A stretch of DNA of 64,000 bases from a virus (Duplodnaviria > Heunggongvirae > Uroviricota > Caudoviricetes): positions 16,620 to 80,619 of IMG/VR virus record IMGVR_UViG_3300027710_001241; one strand, 5' to 3'. This document shows, one piece after another, positions 13,245 to 61,877 of this stretch. Below the pieces are notes generated by a model that saw only the letters and a program-made list of their open reading frames with translations, was not told where the DNA came from and did no database searches. Every line of letters begins with the position of its first letter. Position 1 is the stretch's first letter. Made by a program: the position numbers and the translations under genes.

Positions 13245-13321
13245 TGGTGCCCAGGGCGAGACTCGAACTCGCAAAATTTGGCTTCTAAGACCAACACGTA
13301 TACCAATTCCATCACCTGGGC
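13245..13321 (-). tRNA. tRNA with anticodon UAG (Leu, CUN codons) but short class-I variable loop
   Basis: acceptor GCCCAGG/CCUGGGC; anticodon arm UUGGU CUUAGAA GCCAA; T-arm GCGAGTTCGAGTCTCGC; consensus promoter just upstream. Confidence 0.55.
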
Positions 13322-13329
13322 ATAAAACT

Positions 13330-13358
13330 ATTATAGCAGAATATTTATATTCTGTCAA
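13330..13358 (-). promoter_or_regulatory. sigma70 consensus promoter driving the tRNA array
   Basis: rc reads GGTTGACA GAATATAAATATTCTGC TATAAT. Confidence 0.65.
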
Positions 13359-13593
13359 CCTACATTATTAAATTTGTTAAAGTAGTGCTACCATCGTTAT
13401 AAGCACCATTCACCTGTGTAATAAACTCGAGCAGGACTCGGTACGTTACTTGGGATAGATCCAGATGATACCCACTGTATGCCGATCCCATTCAAGCGAT
13501 CAGCCGGGCAACGAACCCGCATCCTTTTACTATATCGGTAGTTCGAACATACCTTTATAGCGTGACTTCTCTTGCTAACACTCTAACAAAACT

Positions 13594-13683
13594 TGGTCCC
13601 GCAGTGAGGAATCGAACCCCATCCTGGACCTTATCTAGATTAATCGGATATAAGCCGACCTGCTCTCCTTGAGCTACTGCGGG
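13594..13683 (-). tRNA. atypical 90-nt tRNA-like gene (anticodon loop CUUAUAU, i.e. UAU by my fold; long variable region)
   Basis: acceptor CCCGCAG/CUGCGGG A CCA, T-arm UGGGGTTCGATTCCUCA, anticodon stem GUCGG/CCGAU. Confidence 0.4.
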
Positions 13684-13691
13684 AAAAACTT

Positions 13692-13767
13692 TGGCGTCCC
13701 TAGGGGGATTCGAACCCCCGTACTCACCGTGAAAGGGTGATGTCCTAGGCCTCTAGACGATAGGGAC
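13692..13767 (-). tRNA. tRNA-Glu(UUC), copy 1
   Basis: acceptor GUCCCUA/UAGGGAC; anticodon arm UCACC CUUUCAC GGUGA; T-arm GGGGGTTCGAATCCCCC. Confidence 0.85.
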
Positions 13768-13775
13768 ATTTAAAA

Positions 13776-13943
13776 CCATTAATTGATAGCACTCACAGTC
13801 TATGACGACGAGCGAATTTCTGAGTGAGGTGCTTCCTCTCATAAGCCATTGCTGTGGTTGTGTTAGGACTGATCGATGGCCCGACCAGCCCGCCTAGTAT
13901 ATGCGTCCATATACGATACCCACTGAATGCTATCAATTAATGG
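13776..13943 (-). ncRNA. structured ~168-nt RNA candidate closed by a perfect 16-bp terminal helix
   Basis: CCATTAATTGATAGCA at 13776-13791 is the exact reverse complement of 13928-13943; internal hairpins GUAUAUG/CAUAUAC, CUGGUCG/CGAUCAG, GAGG/CCUC; no ORF. Confidence 0.4.
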
Positions 13944-14025
13944 TGCTCGGACCCGGAATCGAACCGGGATGCCTTTCGGCGAGAGATTTTAAGTCTCTTG
14001 TGTCTACCTATTTCACCATCCGAGC
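13941..14025 (-). tRNA. tRNA-Leu(UAA), class II
   Basis: acceptor GCUCGGA/UCCGAGC, anticodon arm AGAGA CUUAAAA UCUCU, long variable arm, T-arm CCGGTTCGATTCCGG. Confidence 0.85.
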
Positions 14026-14107
14026 AAATATCAAATTATTTTTTAAAGAACAATGTTAATTGCTTAACGTATGCTATTATTATAGCGCCTTTTTCTTTGC
14101 TTGTCAA

Positions 14108-14182
14108 GTGGTGCTCAAGGAAAGAATCGAACTTTCTACTCAGTCTTACCAAGACTGTGTTATGCCATTTAACTACAAGAGC
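14108..14182 (-). tRNA. tRNA-Thr(GGU) (two U-U mismatches in acceptor stem)
   Basis: anticodon arm CAGUC UUGGUAA GACUG; T-loop TTCGATT. Confidence 0.6.
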
Positions 14183-14183
14183 A

Positions 14184-14258
14184 TGGCCTCGCCTGCAGGA
14201 ATCGAACCCACATTCGCGAGGTAGAAGCTCGCTGTATTATCCATTATACTAAGGCGAG
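14184..14258 (-). tRNA. tRNA-Arg(UCU), copy 1
   Basis: acceptor CUCGCCU/AGGCGAG, anticodon arm GCGAG CUUCUAC CUCGC. Confidence 0.8.
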
Positions 14259-14263
14259 ATGTC

Positions 14264-14337
14264 TGGCACCCGGAGTAGGAATCGAACCTACAATAGCAGA
14301 GTCAAAGTCTGTTGTGTTACCACTACACTATCCGGGA
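14264..14337 (-). tRNA. tRNA-Gln(UUG)
   Basis: anticodon loop CUUUGAC; U1-U72 mismatch at the acceptor top. Confidence 0.65.
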
Positions 14338-14413
14338 TCAAATAAACAGGATGCTTTTTTACGGTTTTGATTAAAAGTCAAATGTATAAAGTTTGCTGAA
14401 CGCATCCTAAAAC
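14338..14413 (-). repeat. inter-tRNA structured spacer element, copy 1
   Basis: AACAGG-arm-...GTTTGCTG...-arm'-CCTAAAACTGG with outer stem AGGATGC/GCATCCT and inner hairpin TTTGA/TCAAA. Confidence 0.5.
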
Positions 14414-14489
14414 TGGTACCAACTTGAGGGATCGAACCTCATTCCACGGTGCTTCAAACCGTTGCTATGACCACATCAGCTAAGTTGGT
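14414..14489 (-). tRNA. tRNA-Phe(GAA)
   Basis: anticodon arm ACGGU UUGAAGC ACCGU; acceptor ACCAACU/AGUUGGU. Confidence 0.8.
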
Positions 14490-14496
14490 ATTGAAT

Positions 14497-14571
14497 TGGT
14501 AGATGTTAGTGGGATTGAACCACTGACCTTCACGGTGTCGACGTGGTGCTCTACCTCTGAGCTAAACATCT
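14497..14571 (-). tRNA. tRNA-Val(GAC)
   Basis: D-arm GCTCAGAGGTAGAGC; anticodon loop UCGACAC (C33 unusual); T-arm AGTGGTTCAATCCCACT. Confidence 0.65.
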
Positions 14572-14575
14572 ATAT

Positions 14576-14651
14576 TGGTCTCGCATGAAGGACTCGAACC
14601 TTCGAACTCCTCGCCCCAAACGAGGTGGCATAGCCGCTAACCGAATGCGAG
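14576..14651 (-). tRNA. tRNA-Pro(UGG), copy 2
   Basis: anticodon arm CCUCG UUUGGGG CGAGG; T-arm GAAGGTTCGAGTCCTTC. Confidence 0.8.
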
Positions 14652-14657
14652 ATAAAT

Positions 14658-14732
14658 TGGTGGTAAAGGAGGGACTCGAACTCTCACTGGGCACCGTATG
14701 AAGGTGTTGCACTACCATTATGCTACATTACC
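14658..14732 (-). tRNA. elongator tRNA with CAU anticodon (Met or lysidine-Ile2)
   Basis: D-arm GCATAATGGTAGTGC; anticodon loop UUCAUAC; single mismatches in acceptor and T stems. Confidence 0.65.
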
Positions 14733-14740
14733 ATATCAAA

Positions 14741-14823
14741 GTACACTTACCAGAATCGAACTGGTGACCAGAGCACCGCTCCAGCTATACTCCACATAAC
14801 GGCCTAGCCTCAGCCGCAGTGTA
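14741..14823 (-). tRNA. tRNA-Ser(GGA), class II, acceptor helix extended to 16 bp by flanks
   Basis: anticodon arm GUUAU GUGGAGU AUAGC; variable hairpin GGAGC-GGT-GCTCT; T-arm ACCAGTTCGATTCTGGT; 16-bp perfect inverted repeat 14731-14746/14819-14834. Confidence 0.65.
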
Positions 14824-14831
14824 CTTTGATA

Positions 14832-14905
14832 TGGTAGGGGTGCTCGGGAACGATCCGAGTTTTACTGGTTAAAAGCCAGTTACTTCACCTTAAAGTTTCA
14901 CCCCC
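14832..14905 (-). tRNA. tRNA-Lys(UUU)
   Basis: anticodon arm ACUGG CUUUUAA CCAGU; unusual T-loop ATCGTTC. Confidence 0.7.
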
Positions 14906-14909
14906 ATAT

Positions 14910-14985
14910 TGGTCCACCCGGTCGGATTCGAACCGACACCTCATTGATTAAGAGTCAAGTGCGCTACCGTTAACGCTACAAGTGG
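14910..14985 (-). tRNA. tRNA-Lys(CUU)
   Basis: anticodon loop CUCUUAA; T-arm GTCGGTTCGAATCCGAC. Confidence 0.7.
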
Positions 14986-15093
14986 TTAGTCGTAATTAAA
15001 TTGATTTAATGTGCCAACCAGGACCAATACGGGGTCTAGATTGACACTAACGTTTACTACGTTTCATGTCGTTCTCCTTTTGAACATTATTAA

Positions 15094-15166
15094 AATAAAA
15101 CAGGATACTGTTTGCTTTTCACAGCCAAAAGTGAAATATTTTGGTTTGCTGTAAGTATCCTAAAAC
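15094..15166 (-). repeat. inter-tRNA structured spacer element, copy 2
   Basis: same framework; outer stem AGGATACT/AGTATCCT, inner hairpin TTTCAC/GTGAAA. Confidence 0.5.
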
Positions 15167-15241
15167 TGGTGCCCCTGGATGGAATCGAACCACCATTACC
15201 AAGTTCGTAGCCTGGAGTATTATCCATTATACTACAGGGGC
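15167..15241 (-). tRNA. tRNA-Arg(ACG)
   Basis: acceptor GCCCCUG/CAGGGGC; anticodon loop CUACGAA. Confidence 0.8.
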
Positions 15242-15310
15242 AAAATAAAACAGGTTCCGCTTTTTTCATTATGCTTGAAATAATTAAGTTTGCTGAAAGG
15301 AACCTAAAAC
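15242..15310 (-). repeat. inter-tRNA structured spacer element, copy 3
   Basis: outer stem AGGTTCC/GGAACCT, inner hairpin TTTCA/TGAAA. Confidence 0.5.
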
Positions 15311-15385
15311 TGGTAGCCACGGACAATTTCGAAATGTCGACTTCTCGCTTATCAAGCGAGTACTCTGCCTCTGAGTTACGCGGCT
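15311..15385 (-). tRNA. tRNA-Ile(GAU)
   Basis: D-arm ACTCAGAGGCAGAGT; anticodon arm CUCGC UUGAUAA GCGAG. Confidence 0.8.
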
Positions 15386-15390
15386 AAATT

Positions 15391-15467
15391 TGGGGTAACC
15401 AATGGGGAACGATCCCATTCTAGCACTTTCACAGAGTGCGGTGCTAAACCTTTACACTATGGTCACC
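15391..15467 (-). tRNA. tRNA-His(GUG) with G-1:C73
   Basis: anticodon arm GCACU CUGUGAA AGUGC; extra 5' G pairing with discriminator C. Confidence 0.85.
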
Positions 15468-15472
15468 ATTGT

Positions 15473-15546
15473 TGGCATACCCCCAAGGACTCGAACCTTG
15501 ACAAACGGTTTTGGAGACCGTTATGCTGCCATTACATCAGGGATAC
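15473..15546 (-). tRNA. tRNA-Trp(CCA)
   Basis: anticodon arm ACGGU CUCCAAA ACCGU; T-arm CAAGGTTCGAGTCCTTG. Confidence 0.8.
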
Positions 15547-15550
15547 ATAT

Positions 15551-15641
15551 TGGCCGAGAGTCAGGGAGTCGAACCCTGTGACCAGTTTTAAGCTGGTCTA
15601 CTGATTAGCAATCAGCTGCATTACCATCCTGCCCACTCTCG
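15551..15641 (-). tRNA. tRNA-Ser(GCU), class II
   Basis: anticodon loop UUGCUAA; variable arm GACCAG-CTTAAAA-CTGGTC; T-arm CAGGGTTCGACTCCCTG. Confidence 0.75.
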
Positions 15642-15646
15642 ATATG

Positions 15647-15761
15647 TGGTACGACCGGCAGGGCTTGAACCTGCAAAAACGCATTGACTAGGTCCTGCGT
15701 CCCTTCCCCACTTTATGCTATGAGCATAACGGGAGGTCTTCCATATTCCACTCACGGTCGC
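15647..15761 (-). ncRNA. 115-nt tRNA-like RNA: canonical acceptor, T-arm and encoded ACCA but ~40 extra nt in the body
   Basis: 5' GCGACCG pairs with 3' CGGTCGT-A-CCA; T-arm GCAGGTTCAAGCCCTGC; no standard D/anticodon arms by eye. Confidence 0.4.
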
Positions 15762-15802
15762 ATATATAATTATACACGAATTAAGTAGAATGTCAATTAA
15801 CT

Positions 15803-15897
15803 TGGAGGAAAGAGGAGGAGTCGAACCCCACCCGGCTCTTCACCAGGACCCAGTTTTCAAGGCTGGTCGGGGAACCATCTCCCCTGCATCACTTTCC
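15803..15897 (-). tRNA. tRNA-Ser(UGA), class II, unusual D region
   Basis: anticodon loop CUUGAAA; variable arm CCTGG-TGAAGAG-CCGGG; T-loop TTCGACT. Confidence 0.6.
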
Positions 15898-15903
15898 ATA
15901 ACT

Positions 15904-15978
15904 TGGCGACTCGACGGGGAATCGAACCCCGATAATCGGATAGACAATCCGAAGTAATGACCTTTATACGATCGAGCC
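15904..15978 (-). tRNA. tRNA-Asp(GUC), copy 1
   Basis: anticodon arm UCGGA UUGUCUA UCCGA; T-arm CGGGGTTCGATTCCCCG. Confidence 0.8.
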
Positions 15979-15984
15979 TAAAAT

Positions 15985-16059
15985 TGGTGGAGGCCGAGGG
16001 AATCGAACCCTTCTAGACATCTTCCTTGCAAGGGAAGACCGTAGCCCACTACTGCCCCC
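15985..16059 (-). tRNA. tRNA-Ala(UGC), short D-loop
   Basis: anticodon arm CUUCC CUUGCAA GGAAG; acceptor GGGGGCA/GGCCUCC. Confidence 0.6.
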
Positions 16060-16073
16060 AATAAAATCTTTGC

Positions 16074-16147
16074 TGTACATCTAGGGATCGAACCTAGCTC
16101 ATTCTTCGTTAACAGCGAAGCGCCTACACCATGCTTGCTCATGTACA
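16074..16147 (-). tRNA. tRNA-Asn-like (GUU), copy 2, poor D-stem, acceptor extended to 13 bp by flanks
   Basis: anticodon arm CUUCG CUGUUAA CGAAG; T-arm CTAGGTTCGATCCCTAG; inverted repeat CTTTGCTGTACAT/ATGTACAGCAAAG at 16068-16080/16141-16153. Confidence 0.45.
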
Positions 16148-16369
16148 GCAAAGATCTCAATGATAAAAGGAATACACGGCGCCCTAAGACGAACTACTGT
16201 CCCCACGAGCTTCTGTCCTTCAACAGCATCACCGCCAACAACACTTTTCTTACCCCTACTGGACCGACTTACTCTCGCATCGTCACCCACCTCATATGTA
16301 GTGAAGCCCACGCAGTCGCACATGGGTCGGTTTCCGTCTACTCATCTTACTAAGTGTTGTCTTAGTATT

Positions 16370-16445
16370 TGGCGCCGCTGACGGGAATCGAACCCGCCTA
16401 AATCTGATAGACAATCAGGTGCCCTACCCAGAGGACTACAACGGC
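16370..16445 (-). tRNA. tRNA-Asp(GUC)-like, copy 2 (anticodon loop UUGUCUA)
   Basis: acceptor GCCGUUG/CAGCGGC; T-arm GCGGGTTCGATTCCCGT; paralog of the next gene. Confidence 0.55.
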
Positions 16446-16449
16446 ATGT

Positions 16450-16525
16450 TGGTATCGCGTACGGGAATCGAACCCGCCTACGTAAGTTGAAAGCCTACTG
16501 ACCTAACCCAGAAGTCCAACGCGAT
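16450..16525 (-). tRNA. tRNA-Glu(UUC), copy 2
   Basis: anticodon arm GUAGG CUUUCAA CUUAC; acceptor AUCGCGU/ACGCGAU. Confidence 0.7.
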
Positions 16526-16531
16526 ATAATT

Positions 16532-16621
16532 TGGTGGTCCTTGAAGGAATTGAACCTAACTGCCAGCCACCCTACAATATTATGGCAACGGATTTACAGT
16601 CCGCCGTAGGGAACAAAGACC
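16532..16621 (-). tRNA. tRNA-Tyr(GUA), class II, weak T-stem
   Basis: anticodon arm GCGGA CUGUAAA UCCGU; long variable region; T-loop TTCAATT. Confidence 0.5.
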
Positions 16622-16858
16622 AAATTTGTAACACACTCTCCGCTATGCGTTTTTGAAACCGTCAAAAGGTAAAAGAGAATGTGTGTATCAAAGAGCACAG
16701 TCTGCGACATTGCAGTCCACATCAGCTCTATGCTCTTTAATACGCTGTAATTTTTCCCTCTACAAGAAGAGTTTCATCCTACAGGCCGCCCGTTTGCCGG
16801 ATGTTTATACTGCCCAGCGAGGTCCTCGTTACCTCATTTCACAGTTTGCGGTCTACAA

Positions 16859-17014
16859 TCACTCGTGAGCAATCTCGCGCTTTCTAACGGCTTTGCTGTA
16901 CACCTTAGCACGTTCCATCTTTTCTAAGATCATCTTACGAAAATCCTGTGGAGATAGTGTGTACTTTTGTGTAAACTCAGCTTCTCGTTGTTTCTTATTA
17001 TCTGTTTCTGTCAT
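16859..17014 (-). CDS. hypothetical small protein (52 aa)
   Basis: unlisted minus ORF MTETDNKKQREAEF...; weak SD. Confidence 0.25.
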   Translation of the reverse strand: MTETDNKKQREAEFTQKYTLSPQDFRKMILEKMERAKVYSKAVRKREIAHE

Positions 17015-17025
17015 TTTTCCGATCT

Positions 17026-17060
17026 AAAAACAAAAAACCCCAGGAGTGTTAGTCCTAGGG
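17026..17060 (-). terminator. rho-independent terminator (minus strand)
   Basis: minus reads CCCUAGGA-CUAACAC-UCCUGGGG then UUUUUUGUUUUU. Confidence 0.6.
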
Positions 17061-17296
17061 TCCTTGGAGTTTAAGTGTAAACTTGTGTTTACATTAAGTC
17101 CTCCCGGACCCTGGTAATCTCTGGTGTGCGATCATATGACAAACTACCACACTCAATCGATAACCAATTGGAGGCTATTACACCTGCCTGTTTGGGCATC
17201 GTATTAAATTGTTGATGTCTGTTAAACGATTGCATTTTGTTTCTCTTTAAAAACCTTTTGTTTTACAAGGACAGCACCATTGCTGTCTATGTGTTA

Positions 17297-17325
17297 ATTA
17301 TACAGTTATTTAGTTCTCTTGTCAA
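17297..17325 (-). promoter_or_regulatory. sigma70 consensus promoter P1
   Basis: rc reads GGTTGACA AGAGAACTAAATAACTG TATAAT. Confidence 0.6.
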
Positions 17326-17384
17326 CCTCTTTTTGTTCTTTTGAGCAAAAAGTTTTTAACAACTTTCCTATCTAACTAGTCTCT

Positions 17385-17413
17385 ATTGTACATTTATTTA
17401 GTCTCTTTGTCAA
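17385..17413 (-). promoter_or_regulatory. sigma70 consensus promoter P2 (tandem with P1)
   Basis: rc reads GGTTGACA AAGAGACTAAATAAATG TACAAT. Confidence 0.55.
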
Positions 17414-17450
17414 CCACTATTTTTATATGTTGTATTTTTACAACAAAAGT

Positions 17451-17524
17451 GGTCCGGCCTACAGGAATCGAACCTGTATTGATAGCTTAGAAGGCTACTG
17501 TTCTATCCATTGAACTAAGGCCAG
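17451..17524 (-). tRNA. tRNA-Arg(UCU), copy 2
   Basis: paralog of the 3235 and 14184 tRNAs; anticodon loop CUUCUAA; D-arm GTTCAATGGATAGAAC. Confidence 0.75.
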
Positions 17525-17531
17525 TTGTCTT

Positions 17532-17560
17532 ATTATACTAGAAAATTATCAGTCTGTCAA
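17532..17560 (-). promoter_or_regulatory. sigma70 consensus promoter immediately upstream of tRNA-Arg
   Basis: rc reads GTTGACA GACTGATAATTTTCTAG TATAAT; predicted start coincides with tRNA 5' end. Confidence 0.6.
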
Positions 17561-17933: not shown

Positions 17934-17962
17934 ATTATAACATGGTTTTACCGCACTGTCAA
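17934..17962 (-). promoter_or_regulatory. sigma70 consensus promoter
   Basis: rc reads GGTTGACA GTGCGGTAAAACCATGT TATAAT. Confidence 0.6.
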
Positions 17963-17972
17963 CCTCTTTTGG

Positions 17973-18455
17973 TTAATTTTCAACTATACCGACAAGGTGC
18001 AATCTAGACTCTTCTGAACAATTTAAAAACGTATGTTTTAATTTGGTATTTACCCACCATACATTACCAATACTCAGGTGATATAAAAAACCCGGTTTAA
18101 AAAGAAAATAACATTCTGGATTAGTAATTAATGGTATATGCAATCTAGGAGTTTCGTCCTTGTGAAAACTATAACATGATTTTGGATAAACCCACATTAG
18201 TCGAGTTCTTTTTAACTTATATCGATTAATAATAGTTTCAAATATTGTATCTTTGAAAAACGGATTAAGTTCAGTATATTGTAATTCTTCGCCTTGACTT
18301 TTTCCAACTGCACTAGTCCATGGATTTTCACCTAATTTATATTGAAGACCAGTTTGTTTACCTTGGTTAGATTCGTACCAAACGATTTCCTTATTAATTT
18401 TTTCAAAATTAATTAGTATAGGACTAACATCAATAGGTTCTATTACATGATACAT
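17973..18455 (-). CDS. hypothetical, possible cupin/Asp-beta-hydroxylase-like oxygenase
   Basis: FHKDETPRLH ... KHTF spacing; weak. Confidence 0.3.
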   Translation of the reverse strand: MYHVIEPIDVSPILINFEKINKEIVWYESNQGKQTGLQYKLGENPWTSAVGKSQGEELQYTELNPFFKDTIFETIINRYKLKRTRLMWVYPKSCYSFHKDETPRLHIPLITNPECYFLFKPGFLYHLSIGNVWWVNTKLKHTFLNCSEESRLHLVGIVEN

Positions 18456-18467
18456 TACGATATAATA

Positions 18468-19169
18468 TTAAGCTATGACTTCGATAGTATTAAATGTCCA
18501 GCCATATCCTAGGTTAGCAAAGTAGTGACCGTCATCATCAGGATTAATACCCATAGCATGATACTGTGCCGGACCTGTAACATTTTTAGTATGCTTGACT
18601 GGATATAGATCAATAACAGCTACTCGACCGCCAAACTTAGTTGTACCTGATTTACTATCAAGAACACCTGCCCAGTAACCTTCGAGACCATACCCTACGC
18701 CTGCCGGCATCTTGCCAAAGTGTTCAGAGCATACCGGCCAAGCTGCCTTACTAAAGATAGGACACATAATTTCTACAGTATCAGTGATATGCATCTTGAC
18801 GCCCGGAATCAAAAAGGTACTAGGGTGCGTTCTAAAACTATCTGGAGTCAGTGCAGGTTGCGCCATATCTAAATTATGTTCTTTACAGAAGTTAAATGTA
18901 GCTTCAACACCTTCTGGAGTAGTTAGGCAGTCATCATCTAAAATCCAAATGTATTCATAACGGCTTAGGTCTTGCTTGCTGGCAAAATCCGCAACAATTT
19001 TCCATTTCTGCCCAGGAGTAGTTTCTACATAGGCAGCGTGTTCTAAATTACTTAATGGAGCAGAAGTCCAATTGAGAACTACTAGATCAAAATTGCAGTT
19101 AGAATAGTCACTCCACTGTTGAAACAGTGCATTAGGGCCTGCGGGGATAATTAAAAGATTCGTTTTCAT
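18468..19169 (-). CDS. putative glycosyltransferase-like protein (DUF707-like)
   Basis: DDD-containing GT-A-like core; first gene of the sugar island. Confidence 0.3.
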   Translation of the reverse strand: MKTNLLIIPAGPNALFQQWSDYSNCNFDLVVLNWTSAPLSNLEHAAYVETTPGQKWKIVADFASKQDLSRYEYIWILDDDCLTTPEGVEATFNFCKEHNLDMAQPALTPDSFRTHPSTFLIPGVKMHITDTVEIMCPIFSKAAWPVCSEHFGKMPAGVGYGLEGYWAGVLDSKSGTTKFGGRVAVIDLYPVKHTKNVTGPAQYHAMGINPDDDGHYFANLGYGWTFNTIEVIA

Positions 19170-19172
19170 ATT

Positions 19173-20111
19173 TTACCAAACAAAGTTATTTTTATAATAG
19201 TCTACAATTTTAGCCAGTTCTTCATCGAAGTTAGCTTCAGCTTTCCAACCTAGTGTCTGTAACTTACTGTCATCAATACTGTAACGAACATCCTGTCCTT
19301 TACGTCCCCAACTAAAGTCAATGTACTCATTGTAGTTTTCAGTACCAGTAACCTGCTTAATGATCTTCTTAGCAATGTTAATATTGCTGTCTTCACTGTT
19401 GCCGCTGATGTTAAAGATTTCTCCAGTTACTCCACTTTCTACAATATGTATAATAGCGTTGGCAGTATCGCTGACATGTAACCATGTGCGTCTGGGAGTG
19501 CCGTTTTCGTGCAAAGGGATTTTACGACCAATGCTCAAGTACTTAACAGCCTTGGGGATTAACTTCTCAACATACTGTCCAATGCCATAGTTGTTGGTAG
19601 GACGAACAATAACCCAAGGAATATTATGTGTACGAGCCCAAGCACTGATCAACATGTCAGCGGCAGCTTTGGTAGCACTATATGGATTACTTGGCTTTAG
19701 GATATCTGTTTCAGTGTGGCTACCTTCTACAATATCCCCGTAGACTTCATCAGTGGAAAAGTGTAGTAGTGTAGGAACCTTGAACTTATTCTTTTGTAAG
19801 TTTTGTAGTAAGTTATGAACACCATAGATGTTACTGTTTAAAAATACTTCACTGCCTACAATTGAATTGTCTACGTGACTTTCGGCAGCAGTATTAATAA
19901 CATAGTCACAGTCTAACAAGTAAGTGATATCACGAATGTCTTGTTTGATGTATTTAAATTTTGGATATGCCTGTAGTTCCGGTAAGAACTGTAAATTGGC
20001 AGCATAAGTTTCTTTGTCAACACCTATAACATACCAACCTTTGTCTAAACATTTTTTAGTTACGTGGTAACCAATAAAACCTAAACAACCGGTAACGTAA
20101 ACAACTTTCAT
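19173..20111 (-). CDS. rfbB: dTDP-glucose 4,6-dehydratase
   Basis: TGCLGFIGYH Rossmann motif, YSATKAAAD catalytic YxxxK. Confidence 0.8.
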   Translation of the reverse strand: MKVVYVTGCLGFIGYHVTKKCLDKGWYVIGVDKETYAANLQFLPELQAYPKFKYIKQDIRDITYLLDCDYVINTAAESHVDNSIVGSEVFLNSNIYGVHNLLQNLQKNKFKVPTLLHFSTDEVYGDIVEGSHTETDILKPSNPYSATKAAADMLISAWARTHNIPWVIVRPTNNYGIGQYVEKLIPKAVKYLSIGRKIPLHENGTPRRTWLHVSDTANAIIHIVESGVTGEIFNISGNSEDSNINIAKKIIKQVTGTENYNEYIDFSWGRKGQDVRYSIDDSKLQTLGWKAEANFDEELAKIVDYYKNNFVW

Positions 20112-20908
20112 TTATAATTCCTTAGTCCTTGTTCTAATCCAATTAGGTTAAAATTATAACTAGACAATGCCTCGCTGTCTCCTGTTAAATTATTACCTGT
20201 TGGGTTTTTAATTTTAATCTTTGATGTTGGCAGACCTAAATGATTACACAACATTTCTGCCATCTCACTTAGTCGATATTTATGGGGGTATACCATGTTA
20301 ACATCGGAATGCTGGCTACGGCCTTCTACCATGCGTTCAAGCATGGGCAAGATGTCTGGAAGGTAAATGTAATCTAAATAGATGTCGTTGTTAATTACAA
20401 CTTCATCTTGCTGTTTTACTCTTTGGAAGAATCTATTAGCACTTTCACTTTCATGGAACACTCCAAATAACTTTAAGTTATAAAAGCCTGGAGTATCTCT
20501 AATAATTCTAGCGGCAATATTTTTAGCATAGCCATAACTTGTTCTTGGTAAGTGATGTACAAATTGATGTTCTAAGACACGTTCGTTATTCTTGGTTAGA
20601 TCAAATTCATAGGCTGTACCTAAATGTACAAATCTTTCATACTTGTGTTTTTGCAACCAAAGATTGCGGAACATCAATAAGCCATCACTGAGATACTGTG
20701 GTTCTGTACTGGCTAGTACTTCACGGCCGCTTAAAGCACAATGTACAACTACATCAACTTCGTTGCTGTTAAACCAACTCTCAACCTGTTCTAAGTTTGT
20801 AAGATCTAACTCTTGTCTTGTAGGAGTTAGTAGTGTATGTTTTTCTGCTAGGTGTTTGGCAATAAAGCTACCAACAAATCCTCTTGCACCTGTTATCAGT
20901 ATTTTCAT
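20108..20908 (-). CDS. NAD(P)-dependent sugar epimerase/reductase (dTDP-4-dehydrorhamnose reductase-like)
   Basis: ITGARGFVGS Rossmann fold. Confidence 0.55.
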   Translation of the reverse strand: MKILITGARGFVGSFIAKHLAEKHTLLTPTRQELDLTNLEQVESWFNSNEVDVVVHCALSGREVLASTEPQYLSDGLLMFRNLWLQKHKYERFVHLGTAYEFDLTKNNERVLEHQFVHHLPRTSYGYAKNIAARIIRDTPGFYNLKLFGVFHESESANRFFQRVKQQDEVVINNDIYLDYIYLPDILPMLERMVEGRSQHSDVNMVYPHKYRLSEMAEMLCNHLGLPTSKIKIKNPTGNNLTGDSEALSSYNFNLIGLEQGLRNYK

Positions 20909-21777
20909 TTGTATATTTCATCTAAGTTTAAAGAAGGTACATAGTTCTTAATACTAACATTAGCATCTGAGATAATATAATCTTTCCAACGTTCCGGATT
21001 ATTAATTACAGTGTTTGGAAAGTAACTGTCTAATTCAATGTACTCGAAGCGTTCAGGAGAATTTGGATCAATGCCTCCCTTACGTGTCATAATTTCGTTA
21101 ACATCAATCTTACTGGCCCAATGCTGAGATTCAGTGTGTGCAAAGTTAAGTAGTTTAGTTGCGGCATGAGCAGTATCACCTAGATAGGTAAAATGCCAAC
21201 CGCTGTGTTGAATAGTACGTACTTCGTCAGTATTGTAATCGTCTGGTTGACGGTATGCCCAACCTACCATATGGTTGCGTAAATTTTGAAAGCTAGATAA
21301 ATTCTTTTTAAGTACAGCCATTGGATTAACATGATAAGACCTGGGCTGTATCATCAAGTAGTTTAACTTAAAGTAAAACATAGGGTGACGACAAATCCAC
21401 ATTGAATGTTCTGTATCATTGCGTAGGATATTTAAAGTTCTAGGGCGTAGCACTTCATCGCAGTCTGTTAAAGCTACTACATCATTATCACTAGCACTAC
21501 CTAGTCCACGAATTAATGCATTACGTTGATAATATTCTCTTGTCCAAGCATCAGGACCTTCAGGCATATCATCAACTTTGACGTAAATGATTTTATCGTG
21601 AAACGCTTTATAACGATCCCAGTTATCTTCTAAGATGAATCGTTTGTCGTTACCTGAGAATGTTTTGTTAGCTTCTGCAATTACAAAATAATCTGCACTA
21701 TCGTAACATTCACTTAGTCGAAGTTCTAAAAGATCTAGTTCATTAAAGAATGTAAAACAATCATAGACTTTTCTCAT
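20905..21777 (-). CDS. glycosyltransferase family 17-like (beta-1,4-GlcNAc-transferase fold)
   Basis: N-terminal CFTFFNELDLLELRL hallmark. Confidence 0.55.
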   Translation of the reverse strand: MRKVYDCFTFFNELDLLELRLSECYDSADYFVIAEANKTFSGNDKRFILEDNWDRYKAFHDKIIYVKVDDMPEGPDAWTREYYQRNALIRGLGSASDNDVVALTDCDEVLRPRTLNILRNDTEHSMWICRHPMFYFKLNYLMIQPRSYHVNPMAVLKKNLSSFQNLRNHMVGWAYRQPDDYNTDEVRTIQHSGWHFTYLGDTAHAATKLLNFAHTESQHWASKIDVNEIMTRKGGIDPNSPERFEYIELDSYFPNTVINNPERWKDYIISDANVSIKNYVPSLNLDEIYK

Positions 21778-31907: not shown

Positions 31908-33971
31908 TCACTTTGATGTAGCTCTGTAAGTACCATCCCAATCTGCAGGTAGATTTCTAGTTCTCATATCAGCAATGCGCTCAATCCACAATTCGTAGTA
32001 ATGATCCATCTTGCCGTCAAACTCGCCGGTAAGTTCCTGACATAGTGTAACGGCCTTGTCCCACTCTTGTTTGCGATAGTATTCTAACATTAGTTCATGA
32101 TGTTCTCTAGCTGAGAACCAATCTGCTGCCACAGTGACATCTGGATTGTAGAACACTGTAAAGATGTTAACACCAACATCCTTACCTTTAACTGCAATAC
32201 AATCTAACGGAATAGTAAAGTAGTTGTCACCTACACGGGCTTGTGTAAATTCACTGATAATGATCAATACGCCATAGTTCTTAGTCTGTCCTTCTAAGCG
32301 AGCTGTTAAACTAACCGAGTCACCTAGAACGTCATAACCAAAGCGGTCTTTACTACCAATGTTACCAATCAGTGTAGGACCAGTGTTGATACCAAGTCCG
32401 CAACCTACTAAGGGCTTGCCTTCTTTGGTAAGTTCAATGTTAAACAGTTCAACAGCGTGTAACATTTCTAGTCCAGTGCGAACAGCAGCTAACACATGAT
32501 CTGGATCTTGTTCTTCTTGAATAGGAGCACCGTGGACGTGCAATGACGCATCTCCGATGAACTTGATCAAACAACCATTGTTGCGTAAAATAGGTTCTGC
32601 AATAGCAGTCATGTAACGATTCATTATTGCTGTGAACGCTACAACGTCATCGCCGTAAGTTTCACCTAGACCTGTAAAGTTACGCATGTCACTCATAATA
32701 ACTGTAAGGTCTTTCTTCTCACCACCTAGTTTAATAAAGCTAGGATCTTTCTGTAAGCGTTCGACAATAACAGGATTAACATAGCTACCGAACTGTTTCT
32801 TAATCTGTGACTTTTGGAAAAACTCATCTAAGAATTTTACTGTGTAAGCATGAAGAGCAACGAGGATAATTCCAAGGGTGAAAACAGTAGTATCAAATAA
32901 CATATGAAACCCACTATAAGCGTACATACTAGCGAATACGCTACTAACAGCCAATACAACCATTGTCGCAATTCCGACATACATCCACCTTGTTAAAAAT
33001 AATAATAGTGCGCCTGCAATAACAAGAGCCAATATCTCAGCCTGATCAGCCCACTCAGGGCGCTGAATAGTTGTACCACTTAGCATTGTTCCCATAGCGG
33101 CAGCTTGTAGATCCTGCGGCCATATTTCTCCCTTGCTAGTAGCAATAGGCTGTACTAGACCTGCGGCACTAACGCCTACAATAACTATCTCGCCTTTAAA
33201 AGATTCTGGTAGTTCGACTAGACTATGTTGTTGCGGTGTTGCACTCCAATCGATCCAAACACGACTTATTCCGTCTGTAGGTATCTTACCAAACTTAGGA
33301 ATACGTAGAGCCTCTACGCCCATTTCTCCAATCTTAATTTGGAAGTTCTTATCCTTGGCAGCTACACGTAGAGTTTCTAATGCCAGACTGGGATACAAAT
33401 GCTCTTGACTGTAAATGACTAGAGGTGTTCGGCGAACAACACCATCAATCTCTGGAAAGGTATTAACAATACCTACACCTGCTGCTCGTTCTCCTAGCAT
33501 ATCTACGTTACTAATCAATCCAGGATATTCAACAACCATACCTTCGGGATCTAATCCAATGATAGCTGCAGGACTTCCGTGTGCTGTATTCTTAGAAGTC
33601 ATACTACCTAGACTAGGCAGGATTACTGGATATTGTTCTAAAGTACGTGCTAGTACAGGGTCTTGTTTAAACCTGTCTTTTTCAGGCATTAATATATTAA
33701 AAACGACTAATCCAGCTTCTCTTTTGTAGAGTTCTTTAATAATATCTGCATAAATGTCACGACTAAAAGGGTATTGGCCGTACTTGTCTAATGCCGCTTC
33801 ATCTATGTTAACTGTATGTACAGGGATATCTTTGGCAGGTTGGCCGGTAACCAATTGATCAAAATAACGTAGTCTCACAGACTCTACAAAACTTGGATCA
33901 GCGAATCGAACACCTACTATTAAGGCAAGTGTTACTATAGCCAGCCAGGGGCTTAATAATATTTTTTTCAT
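31908..33971 (-). CDS. CHASE2 sensor domain – class III adenylate/guanylate cyclase
   Basis: N-terminal signal/TM, periplasmic domain, TM cluster, C-terminal cyclase domain (KFIGDA...). Confidence 0.7.
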   Translation of the reverse strand: MKKILLSPWLAIVTLALIVGVRFADPSFVESVRLRYFDQLVTGQPAKDIPVHTVNIDEAALDKYGQYPFSRDIYADIIKELYKREAGLVVFNILMPEKDRFKQDPVLARTLEQYPVILPSLGSMTSKNTAHGSPAAIIGLDPEGMVVEYPGLISNVDMLGERAAGVGIVNTFPEIDGVVRRTPLVIYSQEHLYPSLALETLRVAAKDKNFQIKIGEMGVEALRIPKFGKIPTDGISRVWIDWSATPQQHSLVELPESFKGEIVIVGVSAAGLVQPIATSKGEIWPQDLQAAAMGTMLSGTTIQRPEWADQAEILALVIAGALLLFLTRWMYVGIATMVVLAVSSVFASMYAYSGFHMLFDTTVFTLGIILVALHAYTVKFLDEFFQKSQIKKQFGSYVNPVIVERLQKDPSFIKLGGEKKDLTVIMSDMRNFTGLGETYGDDVVAFTAIMNRYMTAIAEPILRNNGCLIKFIGDASLHVHGAPIQEEQDPDHVLAAVRTGLEMLHAVELFNIELTKEGKPLVGCGLGINTGPTLIGNIGSKDRFGYDVLGDSVSLTARLEGQTKNYGVLIIISEFTQARVGDNYFTIPLDCIAVKGKDVGVNIFTVFYNPDVTVAADWFSAREHHELMLEYYRKQEWDKAVTLCQELTGEFDGKMDHYYELWIERIADMRTRNLPADWDGTYRATSK

Positions 33972-57689: not shown

Positions 57690-58256
57690 TTAGATTAGTA
57701 CTTCACCAAACAACTTTTTTTGTTGGGCTTCTTTTTTCTTTTTGATTTCTTCTTGTTTGGCTAGTTTTTCTTGTTTGGCTTTTAATCTTTGTTGTTTTGC
57801 TCTAGCTTTTTCTTCGGTGTTTCTTCGAGCCTTACCCATTGGAGCAAAGTTGTAACCAAATTTAAGACCGTCACGGCATTGTATATTTTTTTCTACAACA
57901 TGCCGTAAATGTTCTTGCCCACATAATATCCTTTCACGACATAAGTCTACGTTATCGATCATTAAGTCAACGCCGTATGTAGTAGATAAGGCTTGTTCAA
58001 AGGTTGAACCATTCTCCATCTTACGAATGATAACCTCACCTAGGAATTGCCCATCACCACAACTTGGATCTAGAAAAGTTTTAGTTGGGTCCGTAAACTG
58101 CCCCAATGGTAACTTCTCTAAAATTTCCTGCACTAATGGAGTTGGGGTAAAGACCTCACCCGTCACCTTTACTCTTAATTGGTCCCGCTCTACTCCACCC
58201 ATATAGGTGCGATTACGAATGTGGTCAACTACTTCACTTAACGTTGGCTTCAACAT
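57690..58256 (-). CDS. N6-adenine DNA methyltransferase-like protein (motifs X and I only)
   Basis: VFTPTPLV and LDPSCGDGQFL; no NPPY; start uncertain. Confidence 0.4.
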   Translation of the reverse strand: MLKPTLSEVVDHIRNRTYMGGVERDQLRVKVTGEVFTPTPLVQEILEKLPLGQFTDPTKTFLDPSCGDGQFLGEVIIRKMENGSTFEQALSTTYGVDLMIDNVDLCRERILCGQEHLRHVVEKNIQCRDGLKFGYNFAPMGKARRNTEEKARAKQQRLKAKQEKLAKQEEIKKKKEAQQKKLFGEVLI

Positions 58257-61200
58257 AATCAATTTCTTCTTGGGTAAGACCAAAATGTTGGTAAAGTTCT
58301 TGGTCTGTCCAAATTTTACTAGCAAGTTTAGGCAATGATGATAGAACTTTTCCATTAAGGAATCCGCTCCACTTACCAGTATTAACAATAAATTTATAAA
58401 GTTTACTATCGAGATAACTTAAAATATTTTGTGCCTCTGCAGAGTCTGCTAGTATGTATTGACACACTTCTGAGGTGCCAAGATTACCTGCACTAAAAAA
58501 AGGTTTAAAATATCCACTAGTAGTCCAAACAATTTTAGACTTTAAAAAATCCTTTGATTGTTTTTTGCAAAACTTTGTCTGTGCATTTGTGTGGAATGTT
58601 ACATATTTGTAAGTTGTATCTTGAGTGTCAGAGAAATTATTGTGCTTGTGGTCACTGTGGCAAGATGTATCGCAAAGTATATCCAACTTAGGATGAGTTG
58701 AATTAATAACTTTGTCGTGCATAGGAAATGTCTTTGCAAAATTTCTTGGCAAATACTGAAGTTTAGTAATGTCTACTGTAAGACCGTCAATCACAGCAGT
58801 TTGCGTGTTTTTATTTTTTTGTACACACCAGGCTGTAAAACTGCTACCAACGGTAAAATATTTTCCTACTTCGGTGTCGACCCAAATAAGAGAATTATCT
58901 TTAAACATCTTCAGAAGTTGACTGTTCGGACTCATCCAACTGTCAGGAGTTACAAACGCAATAAACCCATTTGGATTTAACAACTCAATACCCTTTTCTG
59001 CAAATTTGCTCCACAGGTTATGGCTTTTTGGTTGTTTTGTTCCTTTATCGTTATTACCTTGATAAGGGGGGTTACCTACTATCACATCAAATTTCATATC
59101 AAATTCCATTTCTGTAAAGTCCCCTTGCATCACTACAATGCCAGGGTATTTCCGTTTAATCTGATTACAGAGAAAACTATACTTGTCATTATACACAATC
59201 TTGTCTATAATATCAATTCCAAACATATCTACTAGTACATCTACTTCTGACCCGTGGCCGCCAGCTACTACAAGAATATGTTTACAATGCTTACTCTTAA
59301 TAAATCTTTTTAGTTCTCGATTGCCAAAAATTTCAAACCAAAGTTTTGCGTCATCCTTAAGAATAGCCAGTGCGTTATTTTCAATATGTTTCTGTGTTGT
59401 GTTATATTTACTCATACGCACAATCATGTCTAACGTAGAAATTTCTAACCGATGTGCAAGACGTTTAATTGTATCTGGACCAACACCGTATAATTCTACG
59501 AATTCCTTGTACATTTCTGTATTGTTTTCAATGAGATCTACACATTCTAAAAAACTTTCACCTTGATAATTACTCAATGCTAGAACCGTCGTAGCACTTC
59601 CGTTAATCATACGTACAGCTTTTTCAACCACTGCCTTAAGAGGATCTTTTTTTACTTTGCCTGTAGCAGATTTTCCAGAATCAAATGTTTTACCGGTAGC
59701 AACAATTTTGTCAATTTTAGACTTTTCTGCTTTACTACCAGAAGAGCGTTTAGCCAATTCACCAAAAGCTTCGATTTCTTCAGAAGTAAGATCTTCAATA
59801 GTAATACGAGTATGAGCATTGGCAATTTCTAATAGCTTGTTGTTATCCTCGAACTCTTTAATAATTGTGTCGGCATCCATCCATTGACCAGAAATCATGT
59901 CCTTAATGTTAACACTGTTCATTACCTCACGAACAGCTTCAGGATAAGTCTTGCCCTTCTGGCGGATTAACAATGCCGCTTCTACTGCCACACTCATTAC
60001 AGAATTGCGAGTCTTACTTTGGTCAAAGGCAAAGTCAAAGATGTGACCGAATTTCTTACCGTATCCAGGAGTAAGGCAACGGCTATACTTTTGCATGTAA
60101 GGATAAACATCGCCTCCTTCTTGCATAAACAGGCATGCCTGGATCTCAGGAATACTATAACTGCGAGTACCCATCATATTAGTGATCACTAACAGTTTAT
60201 CACGACCTGGATAGTAACCGTTTTGCAATCGGACCAATTCTTCTTTGGTAAGGCCTTCTGCTTCTTTATTATCAGTATAATCTCCGTTGAGAATTAGCAC
60301 TTTGTGTTCTTCGCAATATTTCTCAATAATTTCTGCCAATGATTCCATTGACTTCTTAGAGATATTAACAAACAACATAAGATGATTGATAATCTCACCT
60401 GCGGCTTGGCTCAAGTTCATTCCGTAGATAGGTTGATATCCTAACAAGTCTTGGAATACTGCGGCAATAAACTTTTCCTGCGAACGAGCCTTTTCAAGGA
60501 TCTTATTAATGTTAGGCAATACATCATTGTCAAAGTCTTCCAATAGTTTGTTCATTTTAGGATTAAACAACATATTGTAGAATCGACGCACTACTACATT
60601 AGGAATACTAGGGTCCTGTTCTACCATGCAGTATGGAACACTAATAATCTCGTCAATGGCGTTCTTGCCGAATGCTTTAGCCAGGCGACCAATATTAGTG
60701 CCGCTGGCATTGATACGAGTAATTGTTTTACCGTTAAGGATATATTCAACTTTGTCAACTTGACTATCAGTATGGGTACCAAAGTCGGTTTCTTCTAGCA
60801 AGGCAATGTGTGTGCCTGCTAGTTGATTAATCCACTCATACTTTTCTTCTGCTTCTGGATTAAGGCTAATAAACACAACGGGCATTTTGCCGTCTGACAG
60901 GGCCTTTTTGTATTGCTCTTCTGAGTCAGCATCTGCGGCATCAATAAACTGCATACTTGCAAAATCAATGTACTTGCCAATCTCATCCTTATAGGAAGTC
61001 TTAACACTTAGGCCAACACCATAGGCCATAATAAACATAGACTCATGGCCAAATTCTTCTCGCATGGTTTTTGCAAGAGATAGGAACAAGATAGTCTTGC
61101 CAATACGAGCCGCTAGTTCGCAGACAAAGTTTGTTACAATGCCATTCTGGCGAAGGGCTGACAGAACTTTCTTGATTACAAGAATCTGAACATCACGCAG

Positions 61201-61848: not shown

Positions 61849-61877
61849 ATTATACAGGAAAAACCTAATATTGTCAA
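61849..61877 (-). promoter_or_regulatory. sigma70 consensus promoter of the MTase operon
   Basis: rc reads CTTGACA ATATTAGGTTTTTCCTG TATAAT. Confidence 0.6.

Follow-up and report, generated by a model that had tools for sequence, protein, structure and literature searches.

Within a 64,000-nt stretch of a Caudoviricetes virus (IMG/VR record IMGVR_UViG_3300027710_001241, positions 16,620 to 80,619; the whole of this stretch is referred to here as the window), a compact unit at 17026-17413 on the minus strand combines tandem promoters, a short leader open reading frame (ORF), a hairpin and an intrinsic terminator. The window also carries 33 tRNA genes called by ARAGORN, all of them on the minus strand and located between 3235 and 17524, and the unit is considered here as a candidate transcription attenuator at the head of a tRNA operon. 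Its component features are the following.

17413..17385, minus strand: upstream promoter P2, TTGACA-17-TACAAT, 11/12 match to consensus
17325..17297, minus strand: proximal promoter P1, GGTTGACA-17-TATAAT (TTGACA), 12/12 match to consensus and conserved in the family alignments
17270..17287, minus strand: hairpin at the transcript start, GACAGCA-AUGG-UGCUGUC, with compensatory changes on both sides at 6/6 pairs and 84.6% of cells paired
17236..17248, minus strand: purine-rich, Shine-Dalgarno (SD)-like ribosome-binding leader AAAGAGAAACAAA before the AUG (stretch AAAGAGAAAC)
17235..17089, minus strand: leader ORF of 48 codons plus UAA, in a conserved frame, encoding MQSFNRHQQFNTMPKQAGVIASNWLSIECGSLSYDRTPEITRVREDLM with all 20 amino acids
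17127..17234, minus strand: long irregular hairpin within the ORF, predicted by folding, closed by a helix in which the invariant GAUCGCA block pairs with UGCAAUCG in the region of the start codon
17119..17133, minus strand: near-invariant block GAUCGCACACCAGAG (codons DRTPE), invariant at all three codon positions
17112..17057, minus strand: antiterminator hairpin predicted by folding and covariation, with base AGGGUCC:GGACCCU, a variable interior and the stop codon (17091-17089) at its apex
17065..17026, minus strand: intrinsic terminator AAGGACCCUAGGA-loop-UCCUGGGGUUUUUUGUUUUU (arms AAGGACCCUAGGA/UCCUGGGGUUUUU) followed by a U-run, its left arm sharing ACCCU with the antiterminator

An earlier, sequence-only reading of the locus had described two consensus promoters, an ORF of 49 codons whose stop lies inside a long hairpin (17050-17110), and a strong terminator with a U-run. 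Both promoters and the terminator are borne out at the positions listed above. The ORF is likewise present, with the qualification that it comprises 48 sense codons and a UAA, the earlier length having included the stop; the stop is indeed enclosed by a long hairpin, the span of which is revised to 17112..17057. The delimitation of the unit from promoter to terminator was correct, and this architecture recurs in more than 100 independent viral contigs, which is far beyond chance. Structure prediction, which had been proposed as a check, gave a strongly folded transcript: the RNA from 17290 to 17026 reaches -87.2 kcal/mol, compared with -57.8 +/- 5.0 kcal/mol for dinucleotide shuffles (z = -5.9; 0/200 shuffles as stable). 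The global minimum free energy (MFE) structure of this transcript pairs the A-rich leader with the terminator U-run, and was treated as an artefact.

The 48-amino acid (aa) translation of the leader ORF has about 70 metagenomic homolog clusters. A protein-profile scan of viral contigs returned 80 loci and a terminator-only scan, which used sequence outside the ORF, returned 113; together the two scans yield 104-105 distinct copies in uncultivated viral contigs, apparently of freshwater origin. In the common layout, between one and three consensus promoters are followed by a 5' hairpin that some members lack, a leader that is purine-rich or missing altogether, an ORF of 42-53 codons, a variable hairpin bearing the stop codon, and a nearly invariant terminator. 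Among 50,697 phage records, BLAST searches with both DNA and peptide, run in near, distant and tblastn modes, revealed nothing related to the unit, and a single match, L194, was found among 185,579 bacterial and archaeal species genomes (one genome per species). This match (JBBAKF010000113.1) is a 6.2-kb contig in a metagenome-assembled genome of a Polynucleobacter sp. It is probably a phage contig that was binned with its host, and freshwater Polynucleobacter is a tentative host lead.

Transcription from P1 is predicted to start near 17290. At least two tandem promoters are present in 84/105 family members, mostly with a spacing of 83-101 nt, the number ranging from one to three. An SD-like purine 4-mer is found at -5..-18 in 83 of the 88 members that have a leader. 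The other type, leaderless (17/105), places its ATG 6-10 nt past the -10 hexamer, and the 5' hairpin is missing from these members. The window contains nine perfect promoters of the form TTGACA-N16-18-TATAAT, without exception on the minus strand, where shuffled sequence would yield 0.09. Besides P1, these lie on the minus strand at 13330-13358, 14079-14107, 15769-15796, 17532-17560, 17934-17962, 53532-53560, 54543-54571 and 61849-61877, and three of the eight are inside the tRNA array. The promoter at 17532-17560 belongs to a lone tRNA-Arg(UCU) gene (17450-17524, minus strand), which is situated immediately upstream of the unit and outside the array that the unit would gate. Between P1 and P2, an inverted repeat CUUUUUG...CAAAAAG (17329-17352) is terminator-like when read on the plus strand, and a similar A/T-rich repeat is kept upstream of P1 in part of the family. 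This repeat could be an UP-element region or a barrier against incoming transcription.

Predicted hairpin competition and the leader frame

The 3' portion of the unit contains two hairpins that draw on the same strand. GGGUCC:GGACCC closes a hairpin in 104/104 members (mean -21.9 kcal/mol), the variable interior of which is more stable than shuffles (z = -3.75), and GGACCC doubles as the left arm of the terminator. The leader stop, a UAA in 101/104 members, is positioned 20-24 nt after GGGUCC and 26-30 nt before GGACCC, and falls at the hairpin apex in 103/104. Covariation links the base that precedes GGGUCC to the one that follows GGACCC, and this latter base also pairs with a G in the terminator. 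Across the 104 members this overlap pair is A-U in 55, G-C in 40, G-U in 4 and a mismatch in 5 (Fisher P = 4e-20); in the registered alignment, the corresponding counts are 45, 28, 5 and 3 (other). The pair has switched between A-U and G-C at least 11 times independently, as counted on a tree made from the alignment columns outside it. This overlap base pair is the decisive comparative evidence for the predicted switch. Compensatory changes are seen at 4/4 pairs of the inner stem GGAG/CUYC. Pairing in the antiterminator base reaches 94%, compared with 15-63% for slid partners, and distant members carry compensatory variants of the terminator. The two structures are also closely balanced, E(antiterminator) - E(terminator) being -1.1 +/- 1.6 kcal/mol and within +/-3 kcal/mol in 97% of members, and when the nascent RNA is folded only as far as GGACCCY, the MFE fold is the antiterminator in 99/102. 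The structural hallmarks of the attenuator class are found in these elements, namely a short ORF before the terminator, an antiterminator that shares a strand with it, and an ORF end so situated that a translating or terminating ribosome would cover one strand of the antiterminator.

The leader frame is conserved as a frame. In-frame stops number zero across the family, against 130 and 266 in the other two frames, and the distance from the ATG to the invariant ...CACCAGAG block falls into five length classes, each a multiple of three (60/60), while the lengths of the leader and of the 3' hairpin vary freely and are not multiples of three. The ORF is found in 104/104 members picked out by promoter and terminator patterns only, at loci derived partly from the protein-profile scan and partly from the terminator-only scan. 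The encoded product, in contrast, shows neither codon periodicity nor selection at the level of amino acids. Major-allele frequencies at codon positions 1/2/3 are 0.84/0.86/0.82, so that no third-position relaxation is apparent. The ratio of nonsynonymous to synonymous polymorphism (pN/pS) in the broad set is 0.89 in frame, compared with 0.85 and 0.98 out of frame; in the close subset it is 0.55 in frame, compared with 0.91 and 0.93, a difference only 1.5 standard deviations from column shuffles. AlphaFold returned a predicted local distance difference test score of 57 and a predicted template modelling score of 0.11 for the peptide, without secondary structure, and neither Pfam nor PHROGs gave a match for the leader peptide or the neighbouring small ORFs. 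In an exhaustive profile search, the relatives of the peptide were all stand-alone ORFs of 43-73 aa and never part of a larger protein.

Homologs had been proposed as the means of separating a codon-constrained protein gene from a small RNA (sRNA). They show the frame to be conserved and the codon-level constraint to be missing, and the result is a third outcome, that of a frame that would have to be translated even though its product is not selected as a protein. Translation of the leader frame thus appears to matter while the product does not behave as a selected protein, as expected of a cis-acting leader ORF, and the ORF is presumed to be actually translated. The ORF additionally encloses a hairpin of its own (z = -3.19; 88% of members below -2), in which helices 2-7 are 75-83% paired with modest covariation. 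It may be speculated that this ORF-core hairpin limits initiation to nascent transcripts, so stopping the abundant terminated RNA from titrating ribosomes; it could also govern pausing or equip the released RNA for a role in trans.

A further property of the leader peptide is its composition. All 20 amino acids are present in 96 of the 104 peptides and 19 in the other eight, at a mean length of only 47.5 aa. Random 48-aa windows of this phage's proteins contain all 20 with P = 0.023 and a mean of 16.9 residue types, and the other two frames of the same leader RNA average 16.7 distinct amino acids. As a further control, 76 neighbouring ORFs of 40-70 aa located after the terminator average 15.7 distinct amino acids, with 0/76 containing all 20. 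When residues are shuffled within alignment columns, only 23 +/- 4% of the peptides still contain all 20 (maximum 35%, 1000 trials), compared with the 93% observed, so that this pangram property is not the passive inheritance of a conserved core. Cys occurs exactly once in 90% of the peptides and is spread over 17 alignment columns, and the single His and single Tyr are found in 9 and 7 columns, respectively. Even the most divergent leaders (L082, L083 and L094), which are barely alignable, retain 19/20 amino acids in 42-44 residues. The breadth extends to codons: the window leader uses 36 distinct codons (null 28.6 +/- 2.6, P = 0.006; family mean 36.2). The tRNAs of the window phage cover all 20 amino acids with 28 anticodons, and its leader queries 25 of these 28 (null 20.1 +/- 1.9, P = 0.007).

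The downstream tRNA array and surrounding genes

Two further features, both on the minus strand, lie beyond the terminator.

16859..17014, minus strand: first gene that read-through would reach, a 51-aa ORF (MTETDNKKQREAEF...ERAKVY...) starting about 12 nt past the terminator
13245..16622, minus strand: putative regulated target, the same-strand tRNA array from a tRNA-Tyr-like gene onward, with no consensus promoter before 15796

The association with tRNA genes is general. A same-strand tRNA array follows the element in 90/90 loci that have at least 1.5 kb of downstream sequence, and distant members keep the same arrangement. On average, the family arrays contain 15.5 tRNAs in 4 kb, opposite-strand tRNAs are absent, and the median distance to the first tRNA is 450 nt. 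Upstream, same-strand tRNAs are found in only 15/101 loci. No consensus promoter precedes the first tRNA in 73 of the 88 loci that have a tRNA within 1 kb. In the window, no consensus promoter occurs between P1 and 15796, and the 51-aa ORF, the tRNA-Tyr-like gene and the tRNAs for Glu, Asp, Asn, Ala and Asp would therefore need read-through for their expression. An ORF of at least 35 aa begins no more than 45 nt after the terminator in 79/113 loci, and the printed examples resemble the 51-aa ORF of the window. The 35 unique copies of this downstream ORF with an ER[AT][KR] motif show normal coding periodicity (0.71/0.75/0.63), unlike the leader ORF.

Several other observations concern the segment between the terminator and the array. 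The tRNA-like gene at 16535-16622 (minus strand) has a GUA (Tyr) anticodon arm but was not called by ARAGORN, and Rfam matches it only as tRNA-Sec (24.4 bits). Its anticodon arm matches that of the tRNA-Tyr heading arrays elsewhere, but the gene has an apparently truncated D-arm and a long variable arm. Between the 51-aa ORF and this first tRNA lies an RNA-like conserved block, GGUAACGAGGACCUCGCUGGGCAG...GGGCGGCCUGUAGGAUGAA (~16630-16860, minus strand), which also occurs in L194, L197, L031, L039, L041 and L055. Its strict core pattern is present in 10/113 loci and has no Rfam match; a 250-nt stretch of the block folds to -75.7 kcal/mol, a figure without shuffle control.

The wider surroundings are those of a phage with only distant protein similarity to Methylophilales phage Melnitz and Pelagibacter phage HTVC008M, through one cyclase gene. 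This gene (31908-33971, minus strand) encodes a 687-aa protein with CHASE2 and adenylate/guanylate cyclase domains, a phage-encoded nucleotide cyclase with a sensor domain, which matches phrog_35576 over its full length and is 35-41% identical to the Melnitz and HTVC008M proteins. On its upstream side, the tRNA region directly adjoins a run of genes of sugar and hydroxylase type (17973-21777, minus strand), with Pfam matches to an Asp/Asn beta-hydroxylase-like protein and a DUF707/GT2-like protein. Three further ORFs of this run, judged from sequence and outside the Pfam scan, are two of NAD-dependent epimerase/dehydratase type and one glycosyltransferase-like. Genes of a similar kind also flank the element in the distant loci L197 and L198. 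At 58234-61656 (minus strand), a 1140-aa protein carries an Eco57I-type DNA methyltransferase domain near its C-terminal end (residues about 840-920), and its N-terminal 800 residues have no Pfam match.

Competing explanations for the unit

Together, these features point to the unit probably being a ribosome-mediated transcription attenuator that heads the phage tRNA operon, in which a pangram leader would sample every aminoacyl-tRNA class and control read-through into an array that itself covers all 20 amino acids. As proposed, the strong tandem promoters would fire continuously and produce a transcript with a leader ORF of roughly 48 codons, and a ribosome would load on the nascent leader. 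The 3' end of the ORF and its UAA would occupy the 5' arm and apex of the hairpin whose base, RGGGUCC:GGACCCY, uses the left arm of the terminator. A ribosome keeping pace with RNA polymerase and arriving at the UAA would unwind the 5' arm and cover about 12-14 nt beyond the stop; GGACCCY, at 26-30 nt downstream of the stop, would then be free to form the terminator and an RNA of roughly 230-265 nt would be released. If there is no ribosome, or if it lags or stalls ahead of about codon 36-39, RGGGUCC would instead capture the emerging GGACCCY; with the antiterminator formed, polymerase would carry on into the small ORF and from there into the tRNA array. As the leader includes every amino acid, too little of any one aminoacyl-tRNA class could provoke this read-through, and the supply of tRNA would be driven by demand, with phage tRNA output matched to need. 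Both the direction of the switch, with translation favouring termination, and its physiological signal are predicted from the arrangement of these parts. A more specific proposal, which is possible but should be held tentatively, is that of a pan-aminoacyl-tRNA sensor that detects the depletion or cleavage of any single tRNA species and de-represses the complete phage tRNA set as a counter-measure circuit. Starvation, host shut-off or tRNA-targeting defence nucleases could be the triggers of such a sensor.

A number of observations weigh against this attenuator. The leader has no run of identical regulatory codons as found in classical amino acid attenuators. Such clusters mark the amino-acid-operon subclass, and pyrBI lacks them, so that the element is to be regarded as a variant and not as a classical member of the attenuators. 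Within the strict sensing window, defined as the codons whose A-site occupancy keeps RGGGUCC uncovered, all 20 amino acids are represented in only 22-46 of the 104 members, and at least 19 in 83-90 (null P = 0.02); the Glu of DRTPE, and sometimes Val, lies at or past the boundary of this window. Nucleotide conservation within the ORF, for example in GAUCGCACACCAGAG and CAAUUUAAUACGAUGCCCAAACAGGCAGG, is far above what a simple attenuator needs and is only partly explained. The role of the ORF-core hairpin is conjectural, and RNAalifold on MAFFT alignments recovered only the terminator and the hairpin base, and not the ORF-core hairpin as a consensus; the latter was seen by per-sequence folding with voting, and its support is correspondingly weaker. 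The tRNA array of the window has internal promoters at 15796, 14107 and 13358, so that only part of it would depend on read-through, and a consensus promoter stands between the terminator and the first tRNA in 15/88 loci. Both the covariation and the pangram statistics are only partly corrected for shared ancestry. Finally, we infer every functional step of the attenuator from sequence.

Among the alternatives, the two options that the sequence-only reading had placed foremost, an sRNA and a micro-protein gene, do not hold up in their plain form. As a stand-alone micro-protein gene, the unit would encode a peptide of roughly 48 aa acting in trans, for instance on the translation or tRNA machinery, with the hairpin and terminator ending a highly abundant, stable mRNA and the tRNAs arising from leaky read-through. 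The universally open ORF with its ribosome-binding signals or leaderless AUG, the persistence of a core motif, [IL]AKQxGxMPxYWxAI...DRTPE, at 30-59% identity, and the about 70 homolog clusters called as proteins are in keeping with such a gene. It is nevertheless unlikely, as codon periodicity and third-position relaxation are missing, pN/pS is no lower than in the wrong frames and shows no synonymous excess over them in the broad set, and no fold is predicted. An all-20 composition with a relocating single Cys, His and Tyr is unexpected for a folded or binding peptide, and the stop-at-apex geometry and covarying terminator overlap are left without a role. In the non-coding alternative, the structured transcript of roughly 230 nt would itself be what the unit makes, either to act in trans or as a stable RNA encoded alongside the tRNAs, and the ORF would be incidental. 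The self-contained promoter-to-terminator unit, the very strong structure (folding z-scores of -5.9 in the window and, family-wide, of -3.2 and -3.75 for its respective halves) and nucleotide conservation without periodicity would suit it, and the stable RNAs of the T4 tRNA region offer a precedent. Another is rnTrpL, an sRNA that derives from an attenuator (PMC6614838). An incidental ORF, however, would not stay open in 104/104 members with indels in multiples of three only, nor supply an AUG at the transcription start of leaderless members, nor maintain an all-20 set whose residues relocate, and this alternative is accordingly very improbable; the terminated RNA may still have a role in trans besides attenuation. 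The third option of the earlier reading, a leader peptide, is the one retained as probable, to which the position before a tRNA array and the competition between hairpin and terminator are now added.

Two other explanations retain a regulatory leader of a different kind. A nascent-peptide arrest sensor, likened to TnaC, SecM and SpeFL, would have core residues about 13-39, ending in DRTPE, stall the ribosome through the exit tunnel in response to a ligand or factor and so set the choice between antiterminator and terminator. The conserved stretch is about the length of the exit tunnel and ends where a ribosome would start covering RGGGUCC, variation is free over roughly the first 12 residues and over the last 7-9, and the peptide has no predicted fold. 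W24 is invariant, D35, R36 and E39 are nearly so, and P38 is invariant in the closer set A1, a pattern of residues that recalls known arrest motifs. Conservation of that core, however, is at the nucleotide level and involves every codon position, its pN/pS (0.80 in frame and 0.79 out of frame) gives no signal of selection on amino acids, the invariant UGG (Trp) is accounted for by CCA pairing in the ORF-core hairpin, and the pangram property is left unexplained, all of which makes arrest a decidedly unlikely basis for the switch. A processive antitermination leader of the put RNA or rrn boxA type, in which the ORF-core RNA renders RNA polymerase resistant to termination throughout the untranslated tRNA array, is the least credible of these explanations. 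As at the head of rrn operons, the unit is promoter-proximal, has tandem promoters and is followed by a long series of stable-RNA genes, and it has a conserved, structured RNA domain. The boxA-like UCGUUUAACA in the window, however, falls within the family's most variable segment (codons 3-5) and was ruled out as a conserved signal for that reason, and the conserved ORF, the pangram and an immediate strong terminator with a competing hairpin would go unexplained. Rfam gave no family match to the unit either.

For the ribosome-mediated attenuator, the consequences reach beyond this locus. Why large phages carry tRNA arrays and how these are expressed are debated, with codon-usage matching, compensation for host tRNA loss and evasion of anticodon nucleases among the proposals. 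If the attenuator is real, a switch at the head of the array that reads global translation capacity would provide a concrete and testable handle on this question, with the prediction that phage tRNA synthesis rises on shortage of any aminoacyl-tRNA. Attenuation would be extended from one amino acid and one pathway to all amino acids and the tRNA pool. The signature, a short all-20 ORF ending in a terminator-overlapping hairpin, is searchable at other tRNA arrays and in translation-machinery operons, and as a compact part of ~260 nt the element could serve as a translation-stress reporter.

Comparison with known systems

Known RNA families provide little precedent for the unit. At the gathering threshold, Rfam matched only tRNAs in the whole window, and likewise only tRNAs at seven other loci of the family; no covariance-model match at gathering score was found for T-box, tmRNA, 6S or freshwater-2. 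With E values up to 10, the best non-tRNA match on the unit was freshwater-2 (RF02980), a weak likeness of a 5' hairpin with a purine-rich ribosome-binding site and AUG. This match scores 22.7 bits, well below the gathering score of 49.9, covers the leader only with large deletions relative to the model, and has no counterpart in the seven other members. Weak matches to the PyrR, NsiR1 and miRNA models were dismissed as noise or as restricted to the hairpin of the ribosome-binding site, and ARAGORN called no tmRNA in the window. Searches of the open-access literature found no account of an attenuator or leader ORF associated with phage tRNA arrays. The tRNA cluster of T4 contains linked non-tRNA transcripts, the small stable RNAs known as species 1/2 (rnaC/rnaD), for which we know of no conserved ORF or attenuator geometry.

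Among regulatory systems, T-box riboswitches are alike in being antiterminator/terminator switches that report tRNA status to genes of the translation system. Unlike the element described here, they bind uncharged tRNA directly, without an ORF. The attenuator of the pheST operon (pheM leader), which encodes the phenylalanyl-tRNA synthetase of Escherichia coli, ties a component of translation to aminoacyl-tRNA availability. There, one tRNA species is sensed and a synthetase is controlled, whereas here all 20 classes would be sampled and tRNA genes lie downstream. Another parallel is the pyrBI leader, a 44-codon ORF at which attenuation operates by the coupling of transcription and translation. 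Both have a long leader ORF without amino-acid-specific codon runs, and in both the outcome would be set by the closeness of the ribosome to RNA polymerase. The pyrBI ORF, however, crosses its terminator such that translation suppresses termination, whereas the phage ORF stops about 26-30 nt short of the terminator arm and its translation is predicted to promote termination.

Terminated attenuator RNAs and leader peptides can gain functions in trans, as in the case of rnTrpL and peTrpL of Sinorhizobium meliloti (PMC6614838, PMC7968998). These bear no sequence relationship to the present element and derive from a short, Trp-specific ORF upstream of trpE(G), but functions of this kind could account for the extra conservation in the phage leader. 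The attenuators of amino acid biosynthetic operons (trpL, hisL, pheL, leuL, thrL and ilvL) are alike in having a short ORF between promoter and intrinsic terminator and an alternative hairpin that shares a strand of the terminator. In these, as is predicted here, the position of the ribosome chooses the hairpin, and the location of the stop codon lets a terminating ribosome block the antiterminator. They differ in that their ORFs comprise 14-32 codons, as opposed to 42-53, and contain runs of codons for a single amino acid, whereas every amino acid is present in the phage leader. The phage ORF is also conserved in its nucleotides and has a long hairpin of its own, some members are leaderless, and the element is phage-encoded and precedes tRNAs in place of biosynthetic enzymes. 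Judged by its predicted structure, the element is of the attenuator class, and its pangram leader is a new design feature within it.

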